NCBI GenBank assembly: GCA_043826455.1
Contig: JBDRQD010000035.1
Location: forward strand, 1-10,882
DNA: 10,882 nt
Source of the DNA: Candidatus Bathyarchaeota archaeon
GTDB taxonomy: Archaea; Thermoproteota; Bathyarchaeia; TCS64
Direction of reading: 5' to 3'
Each line of letters starts with the position of its first letter. Position 1 is the first letter of the stretch. The notes beneath the pieces are model-generated. The model had not been told where the DNA came from and did no database searches. It worked only from the letters and a program-made list of their open reading frames with translations. Of the stretch, positions 1 to 10,882 are shown one piece after another. The translations under genes and the position numbers were made by a program.

Positions 1-50
1 GCGGTGGCGGTGATGGGACCCCCCCTCCCCCCCACCCACACACACACAGG
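1..50 (+). repeat. Left copy of a GC-rich repeat motif (GCGGTGGCGGTGATGGGA-C7-T-C7-ACCCACACACACACAGG)
   Basis: Positions 1-24 match the reverse complement of 10822-10845 at 20/24. Both copies continue with an interrupted C-tract and a CACACAC tract. The copy may be truncated by the window edge. Confidence 0.8.
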
Positions 51-65
51 ATAATCCAACAACAC

Positions 66-75
66 TCTATAAACC
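66..75 (+). promoter_or_regulatory. Possible TATA box (CTATAAA) upstream of ORF 109-549
   Basis: TATA-like element about 35-40 nt upstream of the ATG at 109; motif match only. Confidence 0.3.
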
Positions 76-108
76 ACAAATACCCAGCCACCAACAACCC
101 ACCCAAAC

Positions 109-549
109 ATGCCCACAGCCATCACCGAACACACCCAAAAATGGACAATCACCATGGAAGCAGCAGACAAAACCATCCAACTACCCCTATACCAAGTAAC
201 AGAAGACATACTCCTAAACCCAGACTTCGCAGACAAACTAAGATACCTCCTCCTCGAAAACCCCCACTACCACCCCGCAAACAACATCACCCACATAATC
301 TCCCCCGAAAAAAAAGAGATAAAAGGCAAAGCCCTCTTCGTCATCCTCTGCCACCTCAAAGAGTACACCGAACGCAAATCCGGCTCCCAAAACCACTACC
401 TCTTCGGAGAACTCAAGAGCCACGGCTTCAGACTCATCGCAGCCGCAGACGACAAACTCACCGTCGACCGGTTCAGGTTCTGGATAAAGATCATAACCAT
501 GAAGCCATCACTCGTGAAAAGCCTCATCCTAACCCACATGACCCAGTGA
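109..549 (+). CDS. Hypothetical protein, 146 aa
   Basis: ATG start and protein-like amino-acid composition, unlike the Pro/Arg-rich overlapping frame. It ends 39 nt before cysK on the same strand. No family recognised. Confidence 0.55.
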   Translation: MPTAITEHTQKWTITMEAADKTIQLPLYQVTEDILLNPDFADKLRYLLLENPHYHPANNITHIISPEKKEIKGKALFVILCHLKEYTERKSGSQNHYLFGELKSHGFRLIAAADDKLTVDRFRFWIKIITMKPSLVKSLILTHMTQ

Positions 550-588
550 CCTCTTTAATAGGCTCAAAGGGATATCTTCACTGATCCC

Positions 589-1539
589 ATGTACTACAAC
601 AGTGTGCTCGAAGCCATCGGAAACACCCCCCTGATCAAACTCGGCAGAGTAGCCCCCAAAGGCGTATCCAACATATTCGTCAAGGCCGAGTACCTCAACC
701 CCAGCGGCAGCCTGAAAGACAGGATCGCCCTGGAGATGATAAGAGACGCCGAGGCCAGCGGCGCCCTAAAACCCGGCTACACCATCATCGACGCCAGCAC
801 CGGAAACACGGGCACAGCCCTCAGCTTCGTGGGAACCCAGCTCGGATACAACGTAGAGATATACATGCCTGAAGGCATGACCCGTGAACGCATCAAGATC
901 ATGGAGAGCTACGGAGCCAAGGTGCACGAGCTAGCAACGGAGGGAAGCAGCGAGGGGAGCGTGGCAGGGGCAGAGGTAGAGATCAGCACCAGAGTCAAAT
1001 GCCTCGAGGTGGAGCAGAGCAACCCAAGGGTCTGGTGGGCCCGACAGTTCAGCAACCCGTCCAACACAAAGGCTCACATTAAGACTGGCAGGGAGATACT
1101 CAAACAGCTGGACGGTAAAGTAGACGCCTTCGTGGCCTCCATAGGTGTAGGCGGCACCCTATACGGCGTAGCCAAGACTTTGAGAGAGCGGCTGCCAGAT
1201 GTCTTGATCGTGGGCGCGGAGCCTGCCTCAGCCCGGTATCCTCTCAGCGAGGGTTATACTCGTGTGCCTGGGACAGGTGACGAAGTGTGTGGCGGCATCA
1301 TCGAGGAGATGCTGCTCAGCGGGATCGTTGACCGGGTCGAGAAGGTGAGTAACGAGGACGCGGTGGCCATGTCTGACCGGCTAGTCAAGGAGGAGGGCTT
1401 ATTCTGCGGGATATCGTCGGGCGCTAACGTGTTTCTCGCCCTCAAGGTGGCTAAACAGTTAGGTCCAGCGAAGAACGTGGTGACGGTTCTCCCTGATCAC
1501 CGGGACAGGTATCTTTCTGAGAAGAGGTACACTACCTGA
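589..1539 (+). CDS. cysK: Cysteine synthase family PLP-dependent enzyme (CysK/CysM/CBS-like, fold type II)
   Basis: IGNTPL, KAEYLNPSGSLKDR (PLP lysine K43), STGNTG, QFSNPSN, GVGGT phosphate loop, EGLFCGISSGAN and PDHRDRYLS motifs. Confidence 0.9.
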   Translation: MYYNSVLEAIGNTPLIKLGRVAPKGVSNIFVKAEYLNPSGSLKDRIALEMIRDAEASGALKPGYTIIDASTGNTGTALSFVGTQLGYNVEIYMPEGMTRERIKIMESYGAKVHELATEGSSEGSVAGAEVEISTRVKCLEVEQSNPRVWWARQFSNPSNTKAHIKTGREILKQLDGKVDAFVASIGVGGTLYGVAKTLRERLPDVLIVGAEPASARYPLSEGYTRVPGTGDEVCGGIIEEMLLSGIVDRVEKVSNEDAVAMSDRLVKEEGLFCGISSGANVFLALKVAKQLGPAKNVVTVLPDHRDRYLSEKRYTT

Positions 1540-1867
1540 GTTTGAGGAGCGATCCTCTACTCTCTTCCATCATCTCCAGCATGTCTTGAGGGGTGAGGAT
1601 TATCTTGAAGTGGCTTGGCTTCACTATCTTTATCGCCCTACCTGTTGAGGGGTCTACTTCGTTGGTTATCATGACTAATCCCGCGGATCGGAGCTCGGTT
1701 ACTCTGTGCTGGACCGTCGTGTAGGGTATCTTTGTTTCTTCGGCTATCTGGGTGATGTACTTTGAGCCTTTCAAGATGTGGATGAGTATTTCCCAGGTGT
1801 GTCTTTTTCCCAGAACCTTGAGCTGGGCTTGTGTTCTCTTCATGTCTCTCACAGACACTCGGTTCAC
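1532..1867 (-). CDS. ArsR/Lrp-like winged helix-turn-helix transcriptional regulator
   Basis: The segment ILIHILKGSKYITQIAEETKIPYTTVQHRVTELRSAGLV fits a wHTH pattern. Start is GTG at 1867 or ATG at 1843. The stop overlaps the cysK stop convergently by 8 bp. Confidence 0.8.
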   Translation of the reverse strand: MNRVSVRDMKRTQAQLKVLGKRHTWEILIHILKGSKYITQIAEETKIPYTTVQHRVTELRSAGLVMITNEVDPSTGRAIKIVKPSHFKIILTPQDMLEMMEESRGSLLKLR

Positions 1868-1876
1868 CTGGTAATG

Positions 1877-1902
1877 TTTAGAAATATTTCAAAATTAAAT
1901 AA
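1877..1902 (-). promoter_or_regulatory. AT-rich promoter of the HTH gene with a palindrome (TTTaGAAATATTTCaAAA)
   Basis: Perfect 10-bp palindrome at 1881-1890, extending imperfectly to 1877-1894. A minus-strand TTATTTAATT TATA-like element lies at 1893-1902. Confidence 0.5.
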
Positions 1903-1937
1903 TTTGTTATCGAATTATCGGATTTCTGGATGTGTTA

Positions 1938-2306
1938 CTAGTTAGGATGATCCCCATCCCCCGGCTTAGGACGCTCCAGAGTCTGCCTCTGTATGGCCTT
2001 AAAAAGACTCAGCATACCACCCCTGGGTCCCTCCAAGATCGTTTCTCCTTTACTAGAAGAGTAAGAAAGCAAACCCTTCTTAGATAAGCGGCCCGTCTCA
2101 GAGAACTGAAGGCCCTTTATCTGCGCCCAGTTTTCGGTGATAATCTCCTCCTTCTTGAATAACACGCCGTGTTCCTTGTACAGAAGAAGCCTGTGAGAAG
2201 TAATGAAGACCCTGTAATCCTCCTCGTTATAGTTCACATTAAAGTCGCTCCAGAAGATGATCTTCTCCTCCAGGAGGAGATACTTCTCAATGGGCATACG
2301 CATCAA
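1938..2306 (-). CDS. Prokaryotic PH-domain-like protein
   Basis: The pattern LLLEEKII...VFITSHRLLLYKEHGVLFKKE...I..LQFSETG resembles bacterial/archaeal PH (bPH) domains. Start is TTG at 2306 or ATG at 2303. Confidence 0.6.
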   Translation of the reverse strand: MMRMPIEKYLLLEEKIIFWSDFNVNYNEEDYRVFITSHRLLLYKEHGVLFKKEEIITENWAQIKGLQFSETGRLSKKGLLSYSSSKGETILEGPRGGMLSLFKAIQRQTLERPKPGDGDHPN

Positions 2307-2353
2307 AGATGTCCTTAGGTTTAATAAGTTTCACCGGTTTAAACTGGCTATAT

Positions 2354-2362
2354 TAAAAAAGG
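2354..2362 (-). terminator. Possible archaeal oligo-T terminator after the flavoprotein gene
   Basis: The minus strand reads CCTTTTTTA immediately after the TAA stop of 2363-2902. Confidence 0.4.
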
Positions 2363-2902
2363 TTAAGGAAAAAGGCGTTTACCCGCTTCCTCAAGCATAG
2401 ACAGCTTGTGACCCTTGTTGACCTGCGTGATTGTCACTAGATCAAAGGTCTTGAAGCCTATCCTCTTCAGGTACTCCTCCAACAGATAGAGGGCTCTGGC
2501 CGCACCGTTGCCGCTCCCGCCAGCGGAGGCGATCCCCACGCTCAGCTTGTTCTTGTACCTCTCAAACCCACTGTGGGTCTCAACCCTTCTCAGCCTGTCC
2601 AGGAAGGTCTTGGCTGACTCACTCAGATCGTGCCAGTATACCGGCGTGGCGAAGACCAGAGCGTCAGACCCATCAATCTTCTCACGGATGGCCTGGAACT
2701 CGTCCTCCAGAACACACGCACCCTCTCTCCTGCACTGACCCCAGCCGCCGTCACACGCCTTACACTTCTTTATGACGTGGTCGTTGAGGTGAATGAGCTC
2801 CACTTGGTGTCCCTTGGACTCAGCCCCCTTAAGGAGCTGCTTCGCTGTAGTCGCGGTCAGCCCATCGTGGTTGGGGCTGCTCTGAATAGCTAGAACCTTC
2901 AT
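2363..2902 (-). CDS. Flavodoxin-fold iron-sulfur flavoprotein (Isf / NADPH-dependent FMN reductase family)
   Basis: N-terminal MKVLAIQSSPNHDGLT phosphate loop, four-Cys cluster (C47, C50, C57, C63), and DALVFATPVYW...KTFLDRL, all typical of the Isf/WrbA-like family. Confidence 0.85.
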   Translation of the reverse strand: MKVLAIQSSPNHDGLTATTAKQLLKGAESKGHQVELIHLNDHVIKKCKACDGGWGQCRREGACVLEDEFQAIREKIDGSDALVFATPVYWHDLSESAKTFLDRLRRVETHSGFERYKNKLSVGIASAGGSGNGAARALYLLEEYLKRIGFKTFDLVTITQVNKGHKLSMLEEAGKRLFP

Positions 2903-2944
2903 AGTGTTTCATGAAGTGGAACGGGGGAAGATAAAAGATGGTGC

Positions 2945-3979
2945 TCAGCCGAAGAACCTGTCCAGGGTCGTCCGCTTCCCAGTCACGCTGAAGCCCTTGT
3001 TCATCTTCTCTATGGCGTTCATGACGCGGCTCTGCCCGAAGTTACGTTCGCTGCAGAGGAAGCCGATTATGGCTGCGGTGTCGGGCTTTCTCCACTCCAG
3101 CTCGTAGTCTTCCGTGACTCTGGGGTGGAGGAACAGCTCCTTGATCTCCTCAGGCGTATGAGGGAACTCGGCGTTCTCAATGTGGGGGAGTGTAGCATCA
3201 AGGCTTCCGTGTTTCTTGATGAGCTTTAGCGCCGTCTTAGGGCCCACCCCCTTCACTCCATCCGGGTTGTAGTCAGTGCCCACCAAGATGCCCACGTCTA
3301 TGAGCTGATCCCTGGTGATCTCAAGGTCCTTCATCACCTTGTCGAGCTCCAGTATCTCGGGCTCGATCTTAATATAGACGTTCTTCCTGGGCAACTTCCT
3401 GCGCCCCGTTATACTCAGGTTCCTGAGGTGCCTCGGAGCCCCATACAGAAGGGAGTCATAGTCTTGGCTGGCCGCGCCCCACACGTCGCCCTTGGCCGCC
3501 ATGTAGGCTGTCTGTGCCTCCCCTTCGCCGGGGGCTTGGACCCAGGGTATGCCCATGTCGGTGAGAAGCCTCTTGGAGTCCTCGATGATGTCGGTGGTGG
3601 CTACCACGGCCTGCTGCCCGTAGCGCCTGGCCTTCTCCTCGTCGCCCTCCTTCACGGCTTTCTCGTACTCAACTTGAGCTTTTTGCCGTGTCTGGCGCCT
3701 CTGGTCCAGGGTTCTCTTCTTAAACACGTGGGGTCTGCCGTCGAAGACGTACACTATCTTGACGCCGGCTTCCATGAGGTTGCTGTTCCTGTAGATCAGG
3801 CCGCTGAGGTGGCTGGTGACGCGCCTCGACTGGTCACGGAGGGGCTCACCCTGCTTACCCCTGATGATGGAGAGGAACTGGTAGATGATATTGTTACCGT
3901 CGAAGGCTATGGTGCGTCCTGCTAGGTCCTCTATGGCCACCTTCCGCGGCTCAACAAGGTCGGCAAGCTGAACACCCAA
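2945..3979 (-). CDS. fen: Flap endonuclease 1
   Basis: MGVxL N-terminus (TTG start), DGNNIIYQFL, VFDG, EGEAQ, SQDYDSLLYG and GTDYNPDGVKGVGPKTA (H3TH) motifs, plus a C-terminal PIP-like TLDRFF. Confidence 0.97.
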   Translation of the reverse strand: MGVQLADLVEPRKVAIEDLAGRTIAFDGNNIIYQFLSIIRGKQGEPLRDQSRRVTSHLSGLIYRNSNLMEAGVKIVYVFDGRPHVFKKRTLDQRRQTRQKAQVEYEKAVKEGDEEKARRYGQQAVVATTDIIEDSKRLLTDMGIPWVQAPGEGEAQTAYMAAKGDVWGAASQDYDSLLYGAPRHLRNLSITGRRKLPRKNVYIKIEPEILELDKVMKDLEITRDQLIDVGILVGTDYNPDGVKGVGPKTALKLIKKHGSLDATLPHIENAEFPHTPEEIKELFLHPRVTEDYELEWRKPDTAAIIGFLCSERNFGQSRVMNAIEKMNKGFSVTGKRTTLDRFFG

Positions 3980-3990
3980 GCCCGTGCACC

Positions 3991-4209
3991 CTACGCTAGC
4001 TCTATGCGCCTCTTGCCCCTGGGTATCCTGTAGACCCTGATGAGGCCCTGGATCTCCATCTTCATGAGCATGATGTTCAGCTCGCTCTCACTGAGGCCCT
4101 CGTGGCGCTTCTGAACCTGTTTGAGGAGCTCGTCGAACTTGAGGGCTCCGCTCCTCTCCAGCTGCTCTATGATGGTTGTGGGTAATAGTTTCTCGTCCAT
4201 CTTCTTCAC
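3991..4209 (-). CDS. Small winged-helix protein, 72 aa, function unknown
   Basis: Helix-helix-helix-wing pattern (LKFDELLKQV...SESELNIMLMKMEIQGLIRV...KRRIEL). Its GTG start directly abuts the cdc48 TAG stop, and it ends 11 nt before fen1. Confidence 0.75.
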   Translation of the reverse strand: MKKMDEKLLPTTIIEQLERSGALKFDELLKQVQKRHEGLSESELNIMLMKMEIQGLIRVYRIPRGKRRIELA

Positions 4210-6381
4210 CTAAGCTATGTCTATGGGGGGCTTTCCCGTTTCCTTGAACCGTTTATTTGCGTCCATGTACCACTTTAACTCCTCAGGTGTTATGCTGGGG
4301 GCGATCTCTGTCATGGCTTTCTCAAAGTCCGCTATGCTCACCTTCTCGGTGTCCGGGTTCTTCCTCAGGGCGTGGAGGCCGGCCTCCCTAACCACGGAGT
4401 CTATGTCGGCCCCACTGTAGCCGTCCATCTTGCGGGCTATGCTCTCTAGTTTCACGTCCTCGGCCAATGGCATGTCCTTGGTTTTAATCTGCAGTATCTT
4501 CAGGCGGGCGCCCGTGTCGGGTGGCGGAGTGTAGACTCTGCGGTCGAACCTGCCGGGCCTCAGGACAGCTGGGTCTATTATGTCGGGCCTGTTGGTGGCG
4601 GCTAGGACCACCACGTTCTGTAGACTGAGAAGCCCATCAATCTCTGTCAGGAGCTGGCTTATGACGCGCTCGGTGACCCTGCTGTCGGCAGCTGAGCTCC
4701 TGGAGGGGACCAGGGCGTCGAACTCGTCGAAGAAGATGATGCTGGGGGCAGCCATCCTCGCCTTCCGGAATATCTCCCGGATGGCCTTCTCCGACTCGCC
4801 CACCCACTTGCTGAAGATCTCGGGGCCCCTGACGCTGATGAAGTTTGCCTCGGACTCGGATGCGACAGCTCTCGCGAGAAGCGTCTTGCCGCAGCCTGGT
4901 GGTCCGTGGAGAAGTATGCCCTTTGGGGGGTTTATTCCTAGCCTGGTGAACATCTCAGGCTTCTTCAGGGGCCACTCCACGGCCTCTTTCAGGTTCTGGA
5001 TGACCTCTTCCAGGCCGCCCACGTCGTCCCATTTCACGTTGGGTGACTCCACGTAGACCTCCCTCATGGCCGTGGGGGTGACCTCCCTGAAGGCGTCCAG
5101 GATGTCGGTGTTGTTTACCTCCATCTGGTCCAGGACCTCGTGGGGGATCCTCTTCTCCTCTAGGTCGATCCGGGGCAGGTAGCGGCGCAGGGCCTTCATG
5201 GCGGCCTCCCTGCTGAGGGCCTCCAGGTCTGCGCCAGTGTACCCGTGGGTGATCTCTGATATTCTTGTAATGTTCACATCGTCGGCAAGCGGCATACCCC
5301 TGGTGTGGATCTGCAGTATCTCCATCCTGCCGTCCCTGCCTGGGGTGCCTATCTCAACCTCCCTATCGAACCTTCCTGGCCGTCTGAGGGCTTCGTCGAT
5401 GGCGTCGGGCCTGTTGGTGGCCCCGATAACTATGATGTGGCCGCGGCCCTTGAGGCCGTCCATGCTGGCCAGGAGCTGGGCTACGACTCTCCGCTCCACC
5501 TCGCCGGTGACCTCGCTGCGCTTGGGAGCGATGGAGTCTATCTCGTCTATGAAGAGGATGCTGGGGGCGTTCTTCTCGGCGTCCTCAAACATCTTCCTCA
5601 TCCTGGCCTCTGACTCGCCGTAGAACTTGCTCATGATCTCTGGACCGTTGATGGCGTAGAAGTTGGCCTCCGACTCGTTGGCCACGGCCCTGGCCAGGAG
5701 CGTCTTACCGCAGCCGGGGGGACCGTGGAGGAGCACGCCCTTGGGCGGGTCGATACCCAGGCGCTGGAAGATCTCCGGGTGCCTCAGTGGCAGCTCCACC
5801 ATCTCCCTGATGCGCCTGATCTCCTCGTCCAGGCCGCCTATGTCCTCGTAGGTGGTCCTACTGGGCATCTCCAGCTCAGGGACCGGCTCACTCATGATGC
5901 TGATCTCCGTGGTCGGGGAGATCTTCACTATGCCTCCGGGGCGGGTGTTCACCACCATGAAGGGGACGCTGTGGCCCAGCATCATGATGAGGAGGGTGTC
6001 TCCCCTGGTGGCTGGCCTGTCTATTAGCCTGTCCTTGACGAACCTGATGAAGTCGTTGTCCACACTGATCCTGATGTCCACGGGGGCCAGCTTCACGGAC
6101 GCAGCGTACTCGGCCTCGGCCTTCTTCACAGTGACAAACTCGTTGATGGCCACGCTGCAGTTCTTCCTGATGAAGCCGTCGATTCTGATCAGGCCGAGGC
6201 CCTGGTCCTCGGGGTAGGCTGGCCACGCCTTGGCCGCTGTGGCCTTCTTTCCCTCGATCTCGACCACGTCGCCCACGGTCACGCCCAGCTTCTTCATGGT
6301 GTCGGAGTCCATTCTGGCTATGCTTCTGCCAACATCTCTCTGCTGCTTCGCTTCTGATACCTTTAATTGGATGTTGCTCAC
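4210..6381 (-). CDS. cdc48: CDC48/VAT (p97-like) type II AAA+ ATPase
   Basis: N-terminal double-psi-barrel domain, two GPPGCGKT Walker A motifs, Walker B motifs FIDEID and FFDEFD, and SRH/arginine fingers ALRRPGRFDR and VLRPGRFDR. GTG start with a GGTGA SD-like site upstream. Confidence 0.97.
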   Translation of the reverse strand: MSNIQLKVSEAKQQRDVGRSIARMDSDTMKKLGVTVGDVVEIEGKKATAAKAWPAYPEDQGLGLIRIDGFIRKNCSVAINEFVTVKKAEAEYAASVKLAPVDIRISVDNDFIRFVKDRLIDRPATRGDTLLIMMLGHSVPFMVVNTRPGGIVKISPTTEISIMSEPVPELEMPSRTTYEDIGGLDEEIRRIREMVELPLRHPEIFQRLGIDPPKGVLLHGPPGCGKTLLARAVANESEANFYAINGPEIMSKFYGESEARMRKMFEDAEKNAPSILFIDEIDSIAPKRSEVTGEVERRVVAQLLASMDGLKGRGHIIVIGATNRPDAIDEALRRPGRFDREVEIGTPGRDGRMEILQIHTRGMPLADDVNITRISEITHGYTGADLEALSREAAMKALRRYLPRIDLEEKRIPHEVLDQMEVNNTDILDAFREVTPTAMREVYVESPNVKWDDVGGLEEVIQNLKEAVEWPLKKPEMFTRLGINPPKGILLHGPPGCGKTLLARAVASESEANFISVRGPEIFSKWVGESEKAIREIFRKARMAAPSIIFFDEFDALVPSRSSAADSRVTERVISQLLTEIDGLLSLQNVVVLAATNRPDIIDPAVLRPGRFDRRVYTPPPDTGARLKILQIKTKDMPLAEDVKLESIARKMDGYSGADIDSVVREAGLHALRKNPDTEKVSIADFEKAMTEIAPSITPEELKWYMDANKRFKETGKPPIDIA

Positions 6382-6403
6382 CGGACGTTCACCCTAAATA
6401 TTC

Positions 6404-6434
6404 TCACTGTCTTGAAGGCAGTGACGGTTATAAA
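6404..6434 (-). promoter_or_regulatory. cdc48 promoter: TATA box (TTTATAA, 6428-6434) followed by a 21-bp inverted repeat (6404-6424)
   Basis: The plus strand reads TCACTGTCTT-G-AAGGCAGTGA, with arms matching 9/10. The repeat begins 3 nt downstream of the minus-strand TATA. Confidence 0.6.
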
Positions 6435-6475
6435 GATTAGTTATAGGCTGAGGGAGAAAACAGAGACCGTTTACC

Positions 6476-7543
6476 CTATATGACGCCTGTGGACTCGGCC
6501 AGCTTCCGGGCCTTCGCCTCGTTCAGGGCGATCCTGCTTAGGATGGTGTATCTCTCAGGCCTGACCCCCTGGGCTATGGTTAGGGCTTTCACCAGTACAT
6601 CTGAGTCGATACCCAGCTCTTCGGCCGTTGTGGGGGCACCGATGATCTGCAGGCTTCTCCTGATGGCCTTCCAGTTTATTCTGTGGAGCTTAGCCATCAT
6701 GATGACGCCGACGCCGCATTGCTCTCCGTGGAGTGCTGGTTTCTCGGCTATTTTGTCCAGGGCGTGGCTAAAGAGATGGGCTGATCCACTGGTGGGTTTA
6801 CTGCTTCCAGCTATGCTCATGGCCACCCCGCAGCTCACGAGGGCCTCAAGAACTGTCCTTATACCCTCCTGAGCCTTCTGTTTGATTAGCGCCGCCTGCC
6901 TCATGACGTGCTCTGAGCTCATGAGGCTTAGGTTGCCCGCGTAGCCTCCGTAGTAGTCGCCGTTATCATCGTGGGCGAGCCTCCAGTCCCTTACCTCCGT
7001 GGCCTTGCTGATGATGTCGCCGCACCCCGCTGCCGTGAACCTGTATGGAGACTCGGCTATGATCTTACTGTCCATTATGACGGCGATGGGGGAGGCCGCC
7101 TTTACAGTGTAGGGCCTACCCATACCCTTCACAGAGGCCAGACTACTAGCTATTCCGTCGTGGGACGCGACTGTTGGGACACTTATAAAGAACCTGCTGG
7201 TCTTGAAGGCGCTGAGCTTGGCCACGTCGATGTTTCGGCCGCCGCCTACCCCCAGTATTACGTCAGCCTCCAGTTCCTCCACCTTTTCGGTGACCTTGCC
7301 CACCGTCTCCAGTGTGGCGTCCTCCACGAAGATGCACTCGGCCCCCAGGCCGTCGCCCTCAAGGAATCTTTGAACCTGCTTACCGGCCACATGATACGTT
7401 GTTTTGCCTGTAACTATGAGGGCTGCCCGGAGGCCTAGTTCACTGCACACAGAGCACAGCCTGTTGAGTATTGACTCGCCCACCAGGACTATTCTAGGTA
7501 GGTCTATCCTGTGGATAGCGTTAAGATGCTCAACATTCGTCAA
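6476..7543 (-). CDS. egsA: sn-glycerol-1-phosphate dehydrogenase (archaeal ether lipid backbone)
   Basis: GVGGGRNIDVAK, VPTVASHDGIAS, GDIISK, SGSxHLFSHALD, LHGEQCGVG and RPERYTIL motifs. TTG start. Confidence 0.95.
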   Translation of the reverse strand: MTNVEHLNAIHRIDLPRIVLVGESILNRLCSVCSELGLRAALIVTGKTTYHVAGKQVQRFLEGDGLGAECIFVEDATLETVGKVTEKVEELEADVILGVGGGRNIDVAKLSAFKTSRFFISVPTVASHDGIASSLASVKGMGRPYTVKAASPIAVIMDSKIIAESPYRFTAAGCGDIISKATEVRDWRLAHDDNGDYYGGYAGNLSLMSSEHVMRQAALIKQKAQEGIRTVLEALVSCGVAMSIAGSSKPTSGSAHLFSHALDKIAEKPALHGEQCGVGVIMMAKLHRINWKAIRRSLQIIGAPTTAEELGIDSDVLVKALTIAQGVRPERYTILSRIALNEAKARKLAESTGVI

Positions 7544-7569
7544 TACTTGTATCTGCCTTTCACGCGATT

Positions 7570-7698
7570 ACGGTTTTAATCAGGTTGGCGTATACATATG
7601 TCTTTTCCTGATCAGGAAACCTTTTTAAAACGCGTATCTTTTTAAAGTACTTGGTCTTCCTTTCTAGGATACCTCTCTCGTAACTCTTTGTTTAGGAG
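7570..7698. promoter_or_regulatory. Divergent promoter region egsA/psmB
   Basis: Minus-strand ATTAAAA about 30 nt upstream of the egsA start. TTTTTAAA elements near 7622-7630 and 7638-7647. AGGAG SD at 7694-7698 before the psmB ATG. Confidence 0.5.
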
Positions 7699-7706
7699 AA
7701 GCAGAA

Positions 7707-8339
7707 ATGTCTACAGATACAGGGATGCTGAAGGGCACCACGACCATAGGGGTCGTGTGCAAGGACGGAGTCATACTCGGCACAGATACACGGGCTACCA
7801 TGGGCACGTATGTGGCTAGTAAGCATGCGAAGAAAGTGTACCAGATCACGGATAACCTCGCCATGACCATCGCGGGTGGAGTTGCTGTTGCCCAGAAGGT
7901 GGTGGAGATACTGAAGGTCAACGCGCGGCTCTATGAGCTTGAGAAGAACAGGTCAATTCCTGTAAAGTCTGCGGCTAGGCTCGTGTCCAACCTCCTGTTC
8001 AGTAACCGTGAGGTGGGGATGCCTCTGCCTATGCAGGCTCTCGTGGGGGGCTTCGACGAGACCGGCCCCCACGTCTACAACCTGGACCCCTACGGGAGCC
8101 TCAACGAGGAGAAGATGGTCTCCACGGGCTCGGGTTCGCCCTTCGCCTATGGTGTCCTTGAGGCCGAGTTCAAGGAGGACAGCTCCGTAGAGGAGATGCT
8201 ACCCGTAGTGGTGAGGGCCGTGGACGCCGCCATGAAGCGCGATGTGGCCAGCGGCGACAGCTTCGACATCGTTGTCATTGGCGACGGCGGCTTTAGGGAG
8301 CTTTCTTCCGAGGAGAAGCAGTCAATATTGAATAGTTGA
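7707..8339 (+). CDS. psmB: 20S proteasome beta subunit
   Basis: A 10-aa propeptide ending in KG is followed by catalytic Thr1 (TTTIG). DTRAT, KK and TGSGS motifs and RDVASG are present. Confidence 0.96.
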   Translation: MSTDTGMLKGTTTIGVVCKDGVILGTDTRATMGTYVASKHAKKVYQITDNLAMTIAGGVAVAQKVVEILKVNARLYELEKNRSIPVKSAARLVSNLLFSNREVGMPLPMQALVGGFDETGPHVYNLDPYGSLNEEKMVSTGSGSPFAYGVLEAEFKEDSSVEEMLPVVVRAVDAAMKRDVASGDSFDIVVIGDGGFRELSSEEKQSILNS

Positions 8340-10264
8340 GTTCGATTCCAATGGACAGTACGCAGGGCCTAACATACTCTGAGATAAGACAGGCTATACT
8401 AGACAAGATACCGCCGGAGGTGGGGATAACCCGGATAGAGTTTGAGGGTCCTCGGCTGGCGATATACTGCCACAAACCTGAGATTCTGCAGGAGAGCAGC
8501 CATATAGTGGGGGAGATCGCGGGCATCATCAAGAAGCGTATAGTGATCCGCAGCGACCCCACAGTCAGGATGCCAGAGCTCCAGTCCGAGAACATAATCA
8601 AGGACATTCTACAGGAAGCGGGCCTAGTGCAGGCCTACTTTGACCCCGCCCTGGGTGAGGTGGTGCTGGAAGTGGAGAAGCCGGGCGTGGCCATAGGTAA
8701 GAACGGTTTAAACGTGCTGGAGATCGTTAAACGGACTCACTGGAGCCCCAACTTCGTGCGCTCGCCGCCCATCCCATCCATGACTATAAAGCAGATCAGG
8801 GGCTTCCTGTACAGCAGGAGCAAGGAGCGGGAAAAGGTTCTCAGGGATACTGGTGAAGCCATCTTCAGGCCCATATACCAGCAGGCAGGTGATGTCAGGG
8901 TCACCTTTCTGGGGGGCAGCAGGCAGGTGGGCCGCTCAGCCATACTCATCAAGACCCGTGAGAGCGAGATACTCATGGACTGCGGCATCAACCCAGGCAG
9001 CAGGACACCCATCCAGAGCTACCCGCGGCTTGACGTTGAGGAGTTCGACATTAACCGCCTGGACGCCGTGGTCATCACCCACGCCCACCTGGATCACTGC
9101 GGCTTCCTACCCTACCTATATAAGTACGGGTACAATGGGCCTGTGTACTGCAGCGAGCCCACGGCCAGTGTCATGACGCTTCTGCAGAGCGACTACATCG
9201 ACGTCACCATGAAGGAGGGCAAGGTGCCGCCCTACAGCGCGGAGGACATCTTCGAGGTCATACTCCACACCATTCCCCTGTCCTACGGGGAGGTCACCGA
9301 CGTGTCCCCAGATATAAGGCTCACCCTCCACAACGCGGGCCACATCCTGGGCTCAAGCCTAGCCCACCTCCACATTGGGAAGGGCCTCCACAACATAGTC
9401 TACACGGGTGACTTCAAGTTCGGTCCCACGGCCCTCCTACAGCCGGCGTCCACCTACTTCCCCCGAGTAGAGACACTCATTATGGAGGCCACTTACGGGG
9501 CCCCTGACAACAACTCCCCCAGCAGGGACGAGACGGAGGGGGAGTTCGTGAGCATCGCCAACCATACCCTCAAGAGGGGAAAGGTCCTGATCCCCGTCCC
9601 CGCTGTGGGTAGGGCCCAGGAGATACTTATGGTCATCAACAAGTACATGGAGCAGGGGGACCTACTGGAGGTGCCCGTGTACATCGAGGGCATGATCAGC
9701 GAGGCCACGGGAATACACACGGCCTACCCCAACTACCTGAGCCACGAGATAAGGGACCAGATCCTTAAGGCGGGGGTGAACCCCTTCGAGTCGGACTACT
9801 TCACCGTCATCAAGCAGCATGACAGCCGGGACGAGATAGTCGCCGGAGGCCCCTGTATCATCATGGCTACGGCGGGCATGATGGAGGGCGGCCCCGTGCT
9901 GGAGTACTTCAAGAGGCTGGCCCCCGATAAGGAGAATGGCCTCATCTTCGTCAGCTACCAGGTCTCGGGCACACTGGGGCAGCGCATCCAGTCAGGGATG
10001 GCGTCAGCCCAGCTCTACAACCAAGACGGTAAGATGGAGGTCATCAACATAGACATGAGCACCCACACCGTCCACGGGTTCTCCGGCCACAGCGACAGGA
10101 GGCAGCTCATGAACTATGTGAAGAGGCTGAGGCCCCAGCCCAAGAAGGTGTTCGTGGTCCACGGCGAGGAGAGTAAATGCGAAAATATGGCCCGCTCCAT
10201 AAGCAAGATAAGGGGCGTCAGAGGGTACGCGCCAAGGTTGCTGGACACCTTCGCCCTGGCCTAG
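8336..10264 (+). CDS. fttA: Archaeal beta-CASP ribonuclease aCPSF1 / transcription termination factor FttA
   Basis: N-terminal KH domains (IEFEGP, KPGVAIGKNG), MBL motif HAHLDH, and GHILGS, YTGD, EATYG, FSGHSD and VHGE motifs. The TTG start overlaps the psmB TGA; an alternative ATG is at 8351. Confidence 0.95.
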   Translation: MSSIPMDSTQGLTYSEIRQAILDKIPPEVGITRIEFEGPRLAIYCHKPEILQESSHIVGEIAGIIKKRIVIRSDPTVRMPELQSENIIKDILQEAGLVQAYFDPALGEVVLEVEKPGVAIGKNGLNVLEIVKRTHWSPNFVRSPPIPSMTIKQIRGFLYSRSKEREKVLRDTGEAIFRPIYQQAGDVRVTFLGGSRQVGRSAILIKTRESEILMDCGINPGSRTPIQSYPRLDVEEFDINRLDAVVITHAHLDHCGFLPYLYKYGYNGPVYCSEPTASVMTLLQSDYIDVTMKEGKVPPYSAEDIFEVILHTIPLSYGEVTDVSPDIRLTLHNAGHILGSSLAHLHIGKGLHNIVYTGDFKFGPTALLQPASTYFPRVETLIMEATYGAPDNNSPSRDETEGEFVSIANHTLKRGKVLIPVPAVGRAQEILMVINKYMEQGDLLEVPVYIEGMISEATGIHTAYPNYLSHEIRDQILKAGVNPFESDYFTVIKQHDSRDEIVAGGPCIIMATAGMMEGGPVLEYFKRLAPDKENGLIFVSYQVSGTLGQRIQSGMASAQLYNQDGKMEVINIDMSTHTVHGFSGHSDRRQLMNYVKRLRPQPKKVFVVHGEESKCENMARSISKIRGVRGYAPRLLDTFALA

Positions 10265-10267
10265 GAC

Positions 10268-10579
10268 CTACTCCTTGTTTCTCCAGATCCTGACGTTCTT
10301 GGGGGTGATGATCACCCTCTCCTCGCCGAGGCGGGCGATGTCGCCGTCGTTGCTCTGGGCGTACTCGTTGAGCTCGTTGATGCCCCTCTTCACGTCCTCG
10401 ATGTTGTGCTTGGCCAGGGGAGCCACGTTACATATCACGATGTTGCCTGCCCGTACCTCGGCCTTGATGACGTCGATGTCCTCGTAGGCCCTGAGGGGTA
10501 TGGCTTTGATGTAGCGGGTGCCTCTGAGCTCCTCATCCTCTTCGGATTTGCCTACTAGGCGGTCGAGCATGCCCTTCAT
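10268..10579 (-). CDS. sepF: Archaeal cell division protein SepF (FtsZ membrane anchor)
   Basis: N-terminal amphipathic MKGMLDRLVG, then EVRAGNIVICNV...GDIARLGEERVIITP, matching the archaeal SepF core. Confidence 0.85.
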   Translation of the reverse strand: MKGMLDRLVGKSEEDEELRGTRYIKAIPLRAYEDIDVIKAEVRAGNIVICNVAPLAKHNIEDVKRGINELNEYAQSNDGDIARLGEERVIITPKNVRIWRNKE

Positions 10580-10598
10580 CTGGTCTCAGCCTCGGTAC

Positions 10599-10614
10599 TT
10601 TTATTATATATTTA
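10599..10614 (-). promoter_or_regulatory. Probable TATA box of sepF (AAATATATAATAAAA on the minus strand)
   Basis: AT-rich TATA element about 25-30 nt upstream of the ATG at 10579, consistent with a leaderless or short-leader transcript. Confidence 0.55.
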
Positions 10615-10657
10615 GTGGAGCGGGTATAGATGTTTCTACCCTTGTGTGCTTATATTA

Positions 10658-10882
10658 TTATCTAACGTTGCTGATGCCTGGCCTTGTGCATGAATATTGA
10701 TGGGGGATGCGTGTCAGCCATGTTTCGTGGTCTTCAGCCTCTATTTTTTCGGGCTTTATTTCGTCGGTCTTCTGGGCTGGAATACTTGTTCTCCGTGTGT
10801 GCGCGCCGGGGGGGGGGGGGCGGGGGGTCCCTTCGCCGCCGCCACGATTCCAGGTTTTATAGCCTTTTTTCTGGTTCGGAGG
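10658..10882 (-). CDS. Possible 3' fragment of an ORF running off the window edge (75 codons including the stop)
   Basis: The minus-strand frame is open from 10882 to the TAA at 10658-10660 (PPNQKKGYKTWNRGGGEGTPRPPPPGAHTRRTSIPAQK...NVR). This may be chance, because the strand is T-poor. Confidence 0.2.
   Translation of the reverse strand, partial: PPNQKKGYKTWNRGGGEGTPRPPPPGAHTRRTSIPAQKTDEIKPEKIEAEDHETWLTRIPHQYSCTRPGISNVR
10793..10845 (-). repeat. Right, inverted copy of the GC-rich motif (minus strand: GTGGCGGCGGCGAAGGGA-C6-G-C13-GGCGCGCACACACGG)
   Basis: 20/24 identity to positions 1-24. On the plus strand there is a G13-C-G6 tract at 10808-10827. Confidence 0.8.

Follow-up and report, generated by a model that had tools for sequence, protein, structure and literature searches.

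A dispersed, oriented ~135-bp repeat bordered by a one-sided strand-bias tract in a Bathyarchaeota genome: a possible recombination hotspot

Why does an archaeal contig of ordinary genes begin and end in the same GC-rich motif? The stretch of DNA analyzed here (the window, 10,882 bp) is the whole of contig JBDRQD010000035.1 (C35) of a Candidatus Bathyarchaeota archaeon, whose genome (GCA_043826455.1, hereafter G000) is a 2.95-Mb draft of 81 contigs. The window encodes ordinary archaeal housekeeping and metabolic proteins, among them a PALP-family enzyme, FEN1, Cdc48, a proteasome subunit, FttA and SepF. Positions 1 to 24 match the reverse complement of positions 10822 to 10845 at 20 of 24 bases (the mismatches are C/T, T/C, T/C and T/A), and each copy carries an inward-facing C-tract, C7-T-C7 at 19 to 33 and C6-G-C13 at 10827 to 10808 on the minus strand; the terminal pair is also the longest inverted pair of the window (46 nt, 76% identity). 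Comparison across the genome and its relatives directly shows a multicopy repeat of fixed geometry, a one-sided tract of strand-biased composition beside it and the replacement, at the same sites, of copies and repeat types among close relatives. Our preferred but tentative reading is that this noncoding repeat may work as a one-directional recombination hotspot, which would repeatedly leave the G-rich strand single-stranded over ~1 kb.

A profile hidden Markov model (HMM) of the repeat gave 43 matches in G000, 39 of them near full length and all with E ≤ 1.4e-7, while the best match in the reversed genome had E = 0.18. By itself, the interrupted C-tract was uninformative (139 occurrences vs 116 to 121 across three Markov simulations). 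The matches correspond to ~41 loci, because two pairs of matches are halves of a single copy, one divided between C21 and the window start and the other between C4 and the window end. The end of C21 overlaps window positions 1 to 168 at 95% identity and supplies the missing left part of the left copy, and the final 54 bases of the window are shared, at 96% identity, with the end of C4, which then passes into G-runs. Since these overlaps carry the remaining parts, the ~50-bp motif described in a sequence-only reading of the window is real but corresponds to just the right-hand 50 bp of a ~135-bp element; that reading saw the right third and missed the adjoining strand-bias tract. Its proposals of a dispersed, oriented, multicopy chromosomal element, and of an assembly that breaks at it, hold: both window ends break within a copy, and 8 of the 43 matches lie within 200 bp of a contig end (1.8% expected). 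Although the two copies do bracket the window in inverted, inward-facing orientation, this arrangement has no meaning beyond contig breakage. The possibility that they are partner ends of one mobile unit is ruled out, as no transposase is present among the 12 window proteins, each end continues on another contig as an ordinary copy and the right copy is missing from the sepF loci of 27 of 27 relatives; the composite transposon already considered improbable is thus indeed unlikely. Four shorter or degraded variants were also found in G000, one at E = 0.067, a value to be read against the 0.042 reached by a reversed control.

On its C-rich strand, the element opens with a short lead-in of high GC content, followed by a left arm built of CRC triplets, a ~55-bp spacer, a right arm of RYG triplets complementary to those of the left arm, four variable bases, the C-tract and a CAC tail. 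The C-tract is exactly C7TC7 in 14 of 40 scored copies, and the A-tracts of the spacer are periodic with a peak at 9.5 to 10 bp. The copies are only ~80% identical, yet almost free of indels, and the distances between anchors are constant: one is 42 bp in 62 of 71 copies and another is kept in 69 of 91 (copies scorable by patterns). The consensus folds into 7 pairs around a ~65-column loop. Its covariation score, matched by 186 of 500 shuffles of 32 copies, was not significant, and the arms of one copy pair better with each other than with swapped arms (7.9 vs 7.0 ± 0.14; 137 copies, with kinship uncontrolled). An Rfam search with the element returned no family match.

The composition of the flanking DNA is strikingly asymmetric. 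Past the C-tract, the C-rich strand is rich in A+C; at fourfold coding sites 100 to 500 bp out, the A+C fraction is 0.90 in genes on the same strand and 0.29 in genes on the opposite strand, around a background of 0.58. This split by gene strand indicates that the bias belongs to the DNA strand and not to the direction of coding or transcription. The excess is positive at 34 of 34 testable copies (those of the 43 matches with at least 40 fourfold sites), with a mean of +0.23 compared with +0.01 ± 0.10 for 557 repeat-free intergenic control regions, and its decay is fitted by 0.40*exp(-x/931 bp). The upstream side shows a weaker excess of the same sign (22 of 33 copies, +0.08). Transfer RNA genes are ruled out as its cause: the 33 copies that have no tRNA within 1.5 kb keep values of 0.90 and 0.28, while tRNAs lacking a copy give only 0.66 and 0.46. 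Of the 70 strongest 500-bp bias peaks in G000, 33 contain a copy, all with the same polarity, and many others hold one of two further repeat families. Among changes from the consensus within copies, T>C (0.23) and G>A (0.11) lead, compared with 0.04 each for C>T and A>G. Deamination of C and A, giving C-to-T and A-to-G changes and a G+T excess, has been described for long-exposed single-stranded mitochondrial DNA (mtDNA) (PMC3269012), and the within-copy changes fit this signature.

The two further families help to locate the polarity signal. The second (~335 bp, ~50 matches at ~80% pairwise identity, such as C2:23563-23894 and C64:19732-20063) has its own C6TC6 tract, phased T-tracts and a palindrome, and at C36 and C46 it is placed back to back with a first-family copy; its bias is weak (34 of 43, +0.08) and lies on the other side and strand relative to its C-tract. 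The third (~250 bp, 51 matches, with internal repeats of ~42 bp, such as C55:74043-74285 and C21:62573-62822) shows a clear bias (18 of 19, +0.18) and is without G7AG7, and its outer parts also frame first-family copies, generating mosaics. In all three families the polarity of the bias tracks the strand of the phased A-tracts and not that of the G-tract.

Comparison with relatives shows that the occupants of these sites turn over. From six relatives, 75 copies were collected, 66 of which could be placed in G000 through their downstream gene or DNA. At these 66 sites, G000 has this family in 23 cases, the second or third family in 20, no repeat in 20 (two with a short variant) and a contig edge in 3. 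At shared sites, the core of the relative ranked first among the 39 G000 cores in 1 of 21 pairs, with a median rank of 20 (two weakly mapped pairs of the 23 shared sites were excluded). Of the 7 copies mapped from G044, the nearest relative, 4 differ in G000. G044 cores are 78, 89 and 71% identical to their G000 counterparts where the flanks are 92 to 95% identical; at C15:185050 the flanks are almost unchanged and the core is 78% identical. The dominant multibase subtype is found in 24 of 40 copies in G000, while a different one prevails in G013 (22 of 31) and G008 (18 of 26). At C17, three relatives have the element framed by the outer parts of the third family and G000 has that family's own middle. 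Point mutation would not yield such replacements, which copying between repeats can produce, and the comparison gives direct sequence-level evidence of conversion between copies. The upstream genes are in place at 20 of 28 sites and in some cases come from a position next to a different repeat; at C75, for example, G013 has a gene found before the C9 copy in G000. Empty sites have ragged edges; one, at C25:24102, is exact. At sites without any repeat in G000, the stronger bias tends to be that of the relative, in 8 of 10 cases vs 4 of 15 at shared sites (p = 0.015, with kin that are not independent), and four cleanly empty G000 sites are nearly unbiased (0.02 to 0.05; C15:83282, C15:144666, C25:24114 and C56:28854).

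Within the window, the two copies and the DNA that they adjoin comprise the following features.
1 to 18, plus strand: right (RYG-triplet) arm of the left copy, whose left arm and spacer lie on C21:73932-74012
19 to 33, plus strand: C7-T-C7 tract of the left copy, giving G7AG7 on the minus strand
34 to 48, plus strand: CAC-rich tail of the left copy, conserved across the family
49 to 900, plus strand: strand-bias tract of the left copy, from fourfold-site composition
109 to 549, plus strand: open reading frame (ORF) of 146 aa inside the bias tract, a bystander without a Pfam or NCBIfam match
10268 to 10579, minus strand: sepF past the C-tract of the right copy, a bystander that anchors the site in relatives
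10580 to 10796, minus strand: short interval separating the right copy from sepF, rich in A+C (142 of 217 bases)
10797 to 10807, minus strand: CAC-rich tail of the right copy
10808 to 10827, minus strand: C6-G-C13 tract of the right copy, its length as assembled, without a read check
10828 to 10845, minus strand: right (RYG-triplet) arm of the right copy
10846 to 10882, minus strand: right copy's phased A-tract spacer, second half only, with the first half and the left arm on C4:2332-2380

The left copy displays the bias clearly, with A or C at 59 of 61 fourfold sites in the ORF at 109 to 549, 41 of 49 in the first 100 codons of the PALP-family gene and 54 of 110 in the rest of that gene. The right copy may be young, since it is absent from the sepF loci of all 27 relatives and since in G044, whose surrounding sequence is 91 to 93% identical, second-family pieces occupy the position.

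These observations suggest how a hotspot might work. The exposed strand would be the G strand, running outward past the C-tract, and this is the shape either of a 3′ tail that ends at the element or of a gap that stalled synthesis would leave. We favor a protein-made break followed by resection and invasion by RadA on three grounds: in each of the three families, polarity goes with the strand of the phased A-tracts and not with the G-tract; the geometry is conserved; and a single model would then cover conversion as well as the weak bias and the variability of the upstream side. In this scheme, the G7AG7 box and the spacer with its 10-bp phasing would be the assembly site of a protein, and the element would acquire a nick or a one-ended break. 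Resection of the C-rich strand, proceeding 5′ to 3′ outward from the element, would then yield a G-strand tail whose 3′ end lies at the element, and C-to-T and A-to-G deamination of this tail would produce the A+C excess on the other strand. RadA would use the tail to invade a second copy of the chromosome, an event that could also prime replication, and the same strand would be displaced on the other side, giving the weak upstream bias. Invasion of another repeat copy instead would convert the core and occasionally import the upstream DNA of that copy. Among the roles listed in the sequence-only reading, recombination initiation or protein loading fits best, while a remnant of a MITE (a miniature transposable element with inverted repeats) fits poorly and a noncoding RNA lacks clear support.

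A related C-tract occurs near recombination genes elsewhere in the class. In distant members, a single C-tract of like form lies between an orc1–winged helix-turn-helix (wHTH) gene pair and a radA paralogue, 10 to 25 bp ahead of a TATA-like sequence. Of the 30 best radA loci, 11 of the first 20 have this box and none of the last 10 does. It accompanies 8 of the 9 loci with orc1 or wHTH upstream; a degenerate form is found at 2 of 3 radA genes in G000. The distribution of the box suggests that the C-tract may be a protein-read box tied to recombination. A conserved association between the element and G000's own orc1-wHTH pair is ruled out: that pair is a different paralogue, behind whose wHTH no radA occurs in 66 scorable loci and a C-tract occurs in one, and related repeats lie behind that wHTH only in G000, G013, G008, G085 and, weakly, G074. 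A bolder and improbable version of the hotspot reading would make the repeats dedicated start sites of recombination-dependent replication and gene exchange within this archaeal family, with an Orc1- or wHTH-type damage regulator that reads the radA-side box recruiting a nuclease and RadA to ~40 sites, each of which would fire a one-way 3′ tail, and the sites spreading and being renewed by mutual conversion.

The cassette of orc1/cdc6, wHTH and radA paralogue is conserved in several families of the class (L256:1500-1530, L249, L349, L354, L345, L355 and L359) and is a candidate DNA-damage module; in other archaea, Orc1 paralogues control damage-response promoters (PMC10123103). The full-length radA genes of G000 are at C72:8197-9201, C12:4708-5715 and C57:29566-30549, the C12 gene adjoining a tyrosine-recombinase gene. 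In genome G092, phased A-tracts and a C-tract followed by a G-tract stand directly before gins-mcm (L242:1380-1530), and this genome has several such tracts.

Several observations weigh against the hotspot reading. The right window copy shows no bias in the 3′ part of fttA, 530 to 980 bp away, where coding A+C is 0.66 vs 0.48 to 0.60 in four close relatives, a difference in the wrong direction, and sepF is equally C-rich in three relatives without the element. The site C15:86555 is unbiased in three relatives that carry the element there, and G000 retains a bias of 0.16 to 0.29 at five sites scored as empty. Contigs L104, L105 and L115 (genomes G015, G014 and G005) are strongly biased across fttA and sepF with no copy found by the model (fttA coding A+C of 0.77 to 0.85 or 0.24 to 0.31); a larger-scale skew or other repeats are candidate explanations. 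The commonest differences between genomes are G-to-C and C-to-G, so the spectrum is not one of pure deamination. Clear cross-site moves of upstream genes number only 5 of the 28 scored, and one of these (G024) is actually the same site. The radA-side box was spotted post hoc and has neither spacer nor arms. In addition, the model as a whole is built on composition and comparison, from which we infer the break, the single-stranded DNA and the loading protein alike.

Other explanations account for parts of the same evidence. A replication block would need no dedicated protein: G7AG7 and the paired arms would fold on the G-rich template and stop synthesis of the C-rich strand, the gap, extending outward from the element, would deaminate and recombination would repair it, with bias, conversion and losses as the outcome. 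Such a block should give the observed polarity whatever the fork direction, the maximal G4Hunter-type score on the G strand is 1.96 to 3.08 (family mean 2.5), C4 and C62 terminate in G/C-run noise at a copy and the ragged edges of the empty sites are those expected of deletions. We nevertheless consider it unlikely, because the second family combines the same kind of tract (C6TC6) with a weak bias of opposite side and strand, a clear bias tract accompanies the third family in the absence of G7AG7, polarity goes with the A-tract strand and a plain block leaves the fixed-length phased spacer unexplained. The G-tract also recalls the G5AG7 of CSB II (the second conserved sequence block) in human mtDNA (PMC3488243, PMC4176368). 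By this analogy, transcription into the G-tract would form a stable R-loop and end there, priming onward DNA synthesis; R-loops and D-loops both displace the G strand, which would account for the same sign of bias on both sides, and a convergent copy is found within 120 bp of the gene end for 10 of 50 tRNA genes. This reading is doubtful, since the downstream gene points away at 18 of the 38 matches that have one, with a bias at least as strong there (0.90 vs 0.29 around 0.58), and the RNA over the element remains putative.

The repeat might instead be a passenger, a non-autonomous mobile repeat or one like repetitive extragenic palindromes (REPs) and bacterial interspersed mosaic elements (BIMEs), that lands in fixed orientation in regions already single-stranded, such as strong terminators and tRNA ends. 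Presence or absence among relatives with the exact empty site at C25:24102, modules mosaic with the other two families, a preference for tRNA ends and convergent genes, an IS200/IS605 TnpA gene in G000 and the bias of some empty sites would all suit a passenger. The cleanly empty sites, by contrast, have little bias (0.02 to 0.05 at four), no transposase or integrase is common to the 36 flanking proteins or the flank paralogues, the only TnpA has an internal stop with no repeat similarity found around it and there is no target duplication; we regard this account as slightly more doubtful still than the CSB II-like one. Least probable, in our view, is a chromatin or regulatory site under selection, in which a 60-bp histone-positioning spacer would lie beside an operator box and the neighboring composition would be selected, not mutated. 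Phasing of A/T vs G/C at 10 bp over ~60 bp is a signature of archaeal histones (PMC3691661), G000 has two histone-fold genes and the C-tract holds a promoter position before radA paralogues. Pentamers of only A/T are excluded from nucleosomes, however (PMC3691661), while the spacer has runs of A4-6, and selection explains neither the conversion nor a one-sided gradient that decays exponentially at the synonymous sites of genes on either strand.

Rejected candidates include a retro-element (no reverse transcriptase in G000), a gyrase site (no gyrase found in G000) and a provirus packaging site (a 30-letter pattern was unmatched in viral contigs in one exact-match scan, and no terminase is encoded among 36 flanking proteins). 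No autonomous partner with matching ends was found among the multicopy proteins or the IS605 and IS110 loci of the draft. The sole Y1 transposase of G000 (IS200/IS605 TnpA, with an internal stop and beside TnpB) is on a contig without a repeat copy and has no repeat similarity around it. This IS605-type element (C11:11200-14500) is A+C-rich over ~1.5 kb on its left, where no repeat copy was detected.

As a sequence class the element is an interspersed repeat, but it has the tested defining features of none of the families compared (MITE, REP/BIME, origin recognition box (ORB), attC or Chi). Like the REP/BIME repeats of proteobacteria (PMC3184786), it is dispersed, GC-rich, intergenic, partly palindromic, modular, linked to recombination and frequent between convergent genes. 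Unlike them, it occurs as ~40 single 135-bp copies, its arms stand 55 bp apart in place of a short hairpin, no REP-associated tyrosine transposase (RAYT) lies beside a copy or is flanked by repeats, G000 has no detected gyrase and the kilobase strand-bias tract is not among the REP properties described in the consulted portion of PMC3184786. A REP-type hairpin preceded by GTAG or GGAG was not found; in one subtype, 1 of 40 G000 copies, GTAG precedes the arm on the G strand. MITE-type terminal inverted repeats are likewise lacking, as the arms are internal, conserved sequence extends beyond both and insertion edges vary by site. No target-site duplication is present at C25:24102, and the longest common flank word is 6.09 vs 5.99 ± 0.19 in shuffled flanks (34 copies). 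The integron attC ends RYYYAAC...GTTRRRY are in 0 of 137 copies on either strand, and the copies are single, not arrayed.

Chi, acting with RecBCD or AddAB, is an oriented site whose mechanism starts a 3′ single-stranded tail, and the repeat resembles it in orientation, in the proposed start of a 3′ tail and in an effect that decays with distance. Chi sites are at most 8 bp and far more numerous, unlike the repeat. The archaeal host is not known to have a RecBCD-type pathway, although no search for such an enzyme was made. The E. coli octamer (PMC3763553) is in 0 of 137 copies, and a degenerate variant is on the G strand of 40 of 137, as expected from triplet runs; the arms are runs of TGG/CGG triplets, and RecA prefers TGG repeats (PMC3763553). 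With human mtDNA, its CSB II and H-strand asymmetry, the repeat shares a once-interrupted G tract, a G+T excess fitting C and A deamination and frequent tRNA neighbors (PMC3269012, PMC3488243, PMC4176368), but it differs in having dozens of chromosomal copies in both orientations, a bias independent of gene direction and a tract of ~1 kb. Archaeal origins with an ORB and G-string (PMC4010727) similarly place a G-rich string beside A/T-phased DNA, and G000, in which a single orc1/cdc6 gene was found, has a copy 343 bp past that gene. In contrast to such origins, the repeat has no ORB, no AT-rich unwinding element, an initiator nearby at only 1 of 43 matches and no switch in the sign of the bias across the site. 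A 12-base ORB core (allowing two mismatches) is in 0 of 137 copies on either strand, though ORBs are diverse and a lineage-specific box is possible. RadA-dependent origin-free replication needs 3′ ends for D-loops, and the portions consulted of the work describing it name no dedicated start sites (PMC5333045, PMC11005403).

An oriented, exponentially decaying mutation tract marked by a prokaryotic repeat at dozens of sites would be a fossil map of the places at which one DNA strand is exposed. For the question of where recombination and origin-free replication start on archaeal chromosomes, the repeat sites supply coordinates, strand and tract length. The sites also mark turnover of accessory genes and account for a share of the assembly breaks in these genomes. 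No description of the repeat was found in the open literature, the scope of which excludes subscription papers and supplements such as lists of archaeal repeats and G-quadruplexes (G4s).

Copies are intergenic by ORF calls, the two overlaps involving spurious frames rich in A and C. The DNA past the C-tract holds tRNAs and core genes, those for DNA polymerase B, NusA and SepF among them, and on the opposite side mostly varied transport and metabolic genes, often of lower GC content. A convergent copy lies within 120 bp of the gene end for 9 of 2711 protein genes, far below the tRNA figure given above. No mobility gene is common to the flanks, either in the 36 flanking proteins scanned or among flank paralogues. 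Orientation is local and not replichore-wide: the window copies are opposed 10.8 kb apart, and six G079 matches on one contig are 4 plus and 2 minus, which rules out a replichore-oriented site. In the vicinity of tRNA-Leu, one copy (C39:51135-51250) is heavily A-converted, with a tract of C6 then G7, and adjoins the tRNA gene. A 3′ fragment of tRNA-Leu, a truncated copy and an intact gene occur within 11 kb on C67 (17927-17950, 20003-20110 and 29209-29325), two of them adjoining repeat copies, an arrangement that looks like repeated integration at that tRNA.

With a sequence-only model and 42 candidates scored per genome, the family was found in 19 of 79 genomes of the order, most of them drafts, and in two genera only: 7 of 31 congeners (G013 with 34 matches and G008 with 32) and, in one further genus of the family, 11 of 18 genomes. 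Eight genomes from other families of the order gave no match. The bare C6TC6 tract is wider (19 of 24 congeners), often behind a phased T-tract array; these arrays resemble the spacer of the family in reverse complement (scores of 20.8 to 21.7 vs 15.9 to 17.6 when shuffled) and are hardly alike in the same orientation. G007, a 1.5-Mb congener, has 28 C6TC6 matches (L057 and L065, for example) in a related element that is free of indels and has its T-tract array on the C strand, and the elements of this type show a flat G+T lean over 16 loci, too weak to use as a gradient. Contig L240, from a genome titled Ignavibacteriaceae, carries a copy and aligns over 2.1 kb to G000 C46:1994-4094 at 75%; by this match it is probably mis-binned archaeal DNA.

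In three RNA runs, whose contigs come from other strains and cannot show absence, the neighboring genes were covered and the two copies had almost no depth. Contigs of run X1 break at the C-tract; these breaks may reflect repeat skipping in the processing and are not counted as evidence. The 146-aa ORF at 109 to 549 recurs at the C21 end and the C59 start, and its start differs between the window and the C21 end, which are 95% identical, pointing to a possible strain mixture in the assembly.

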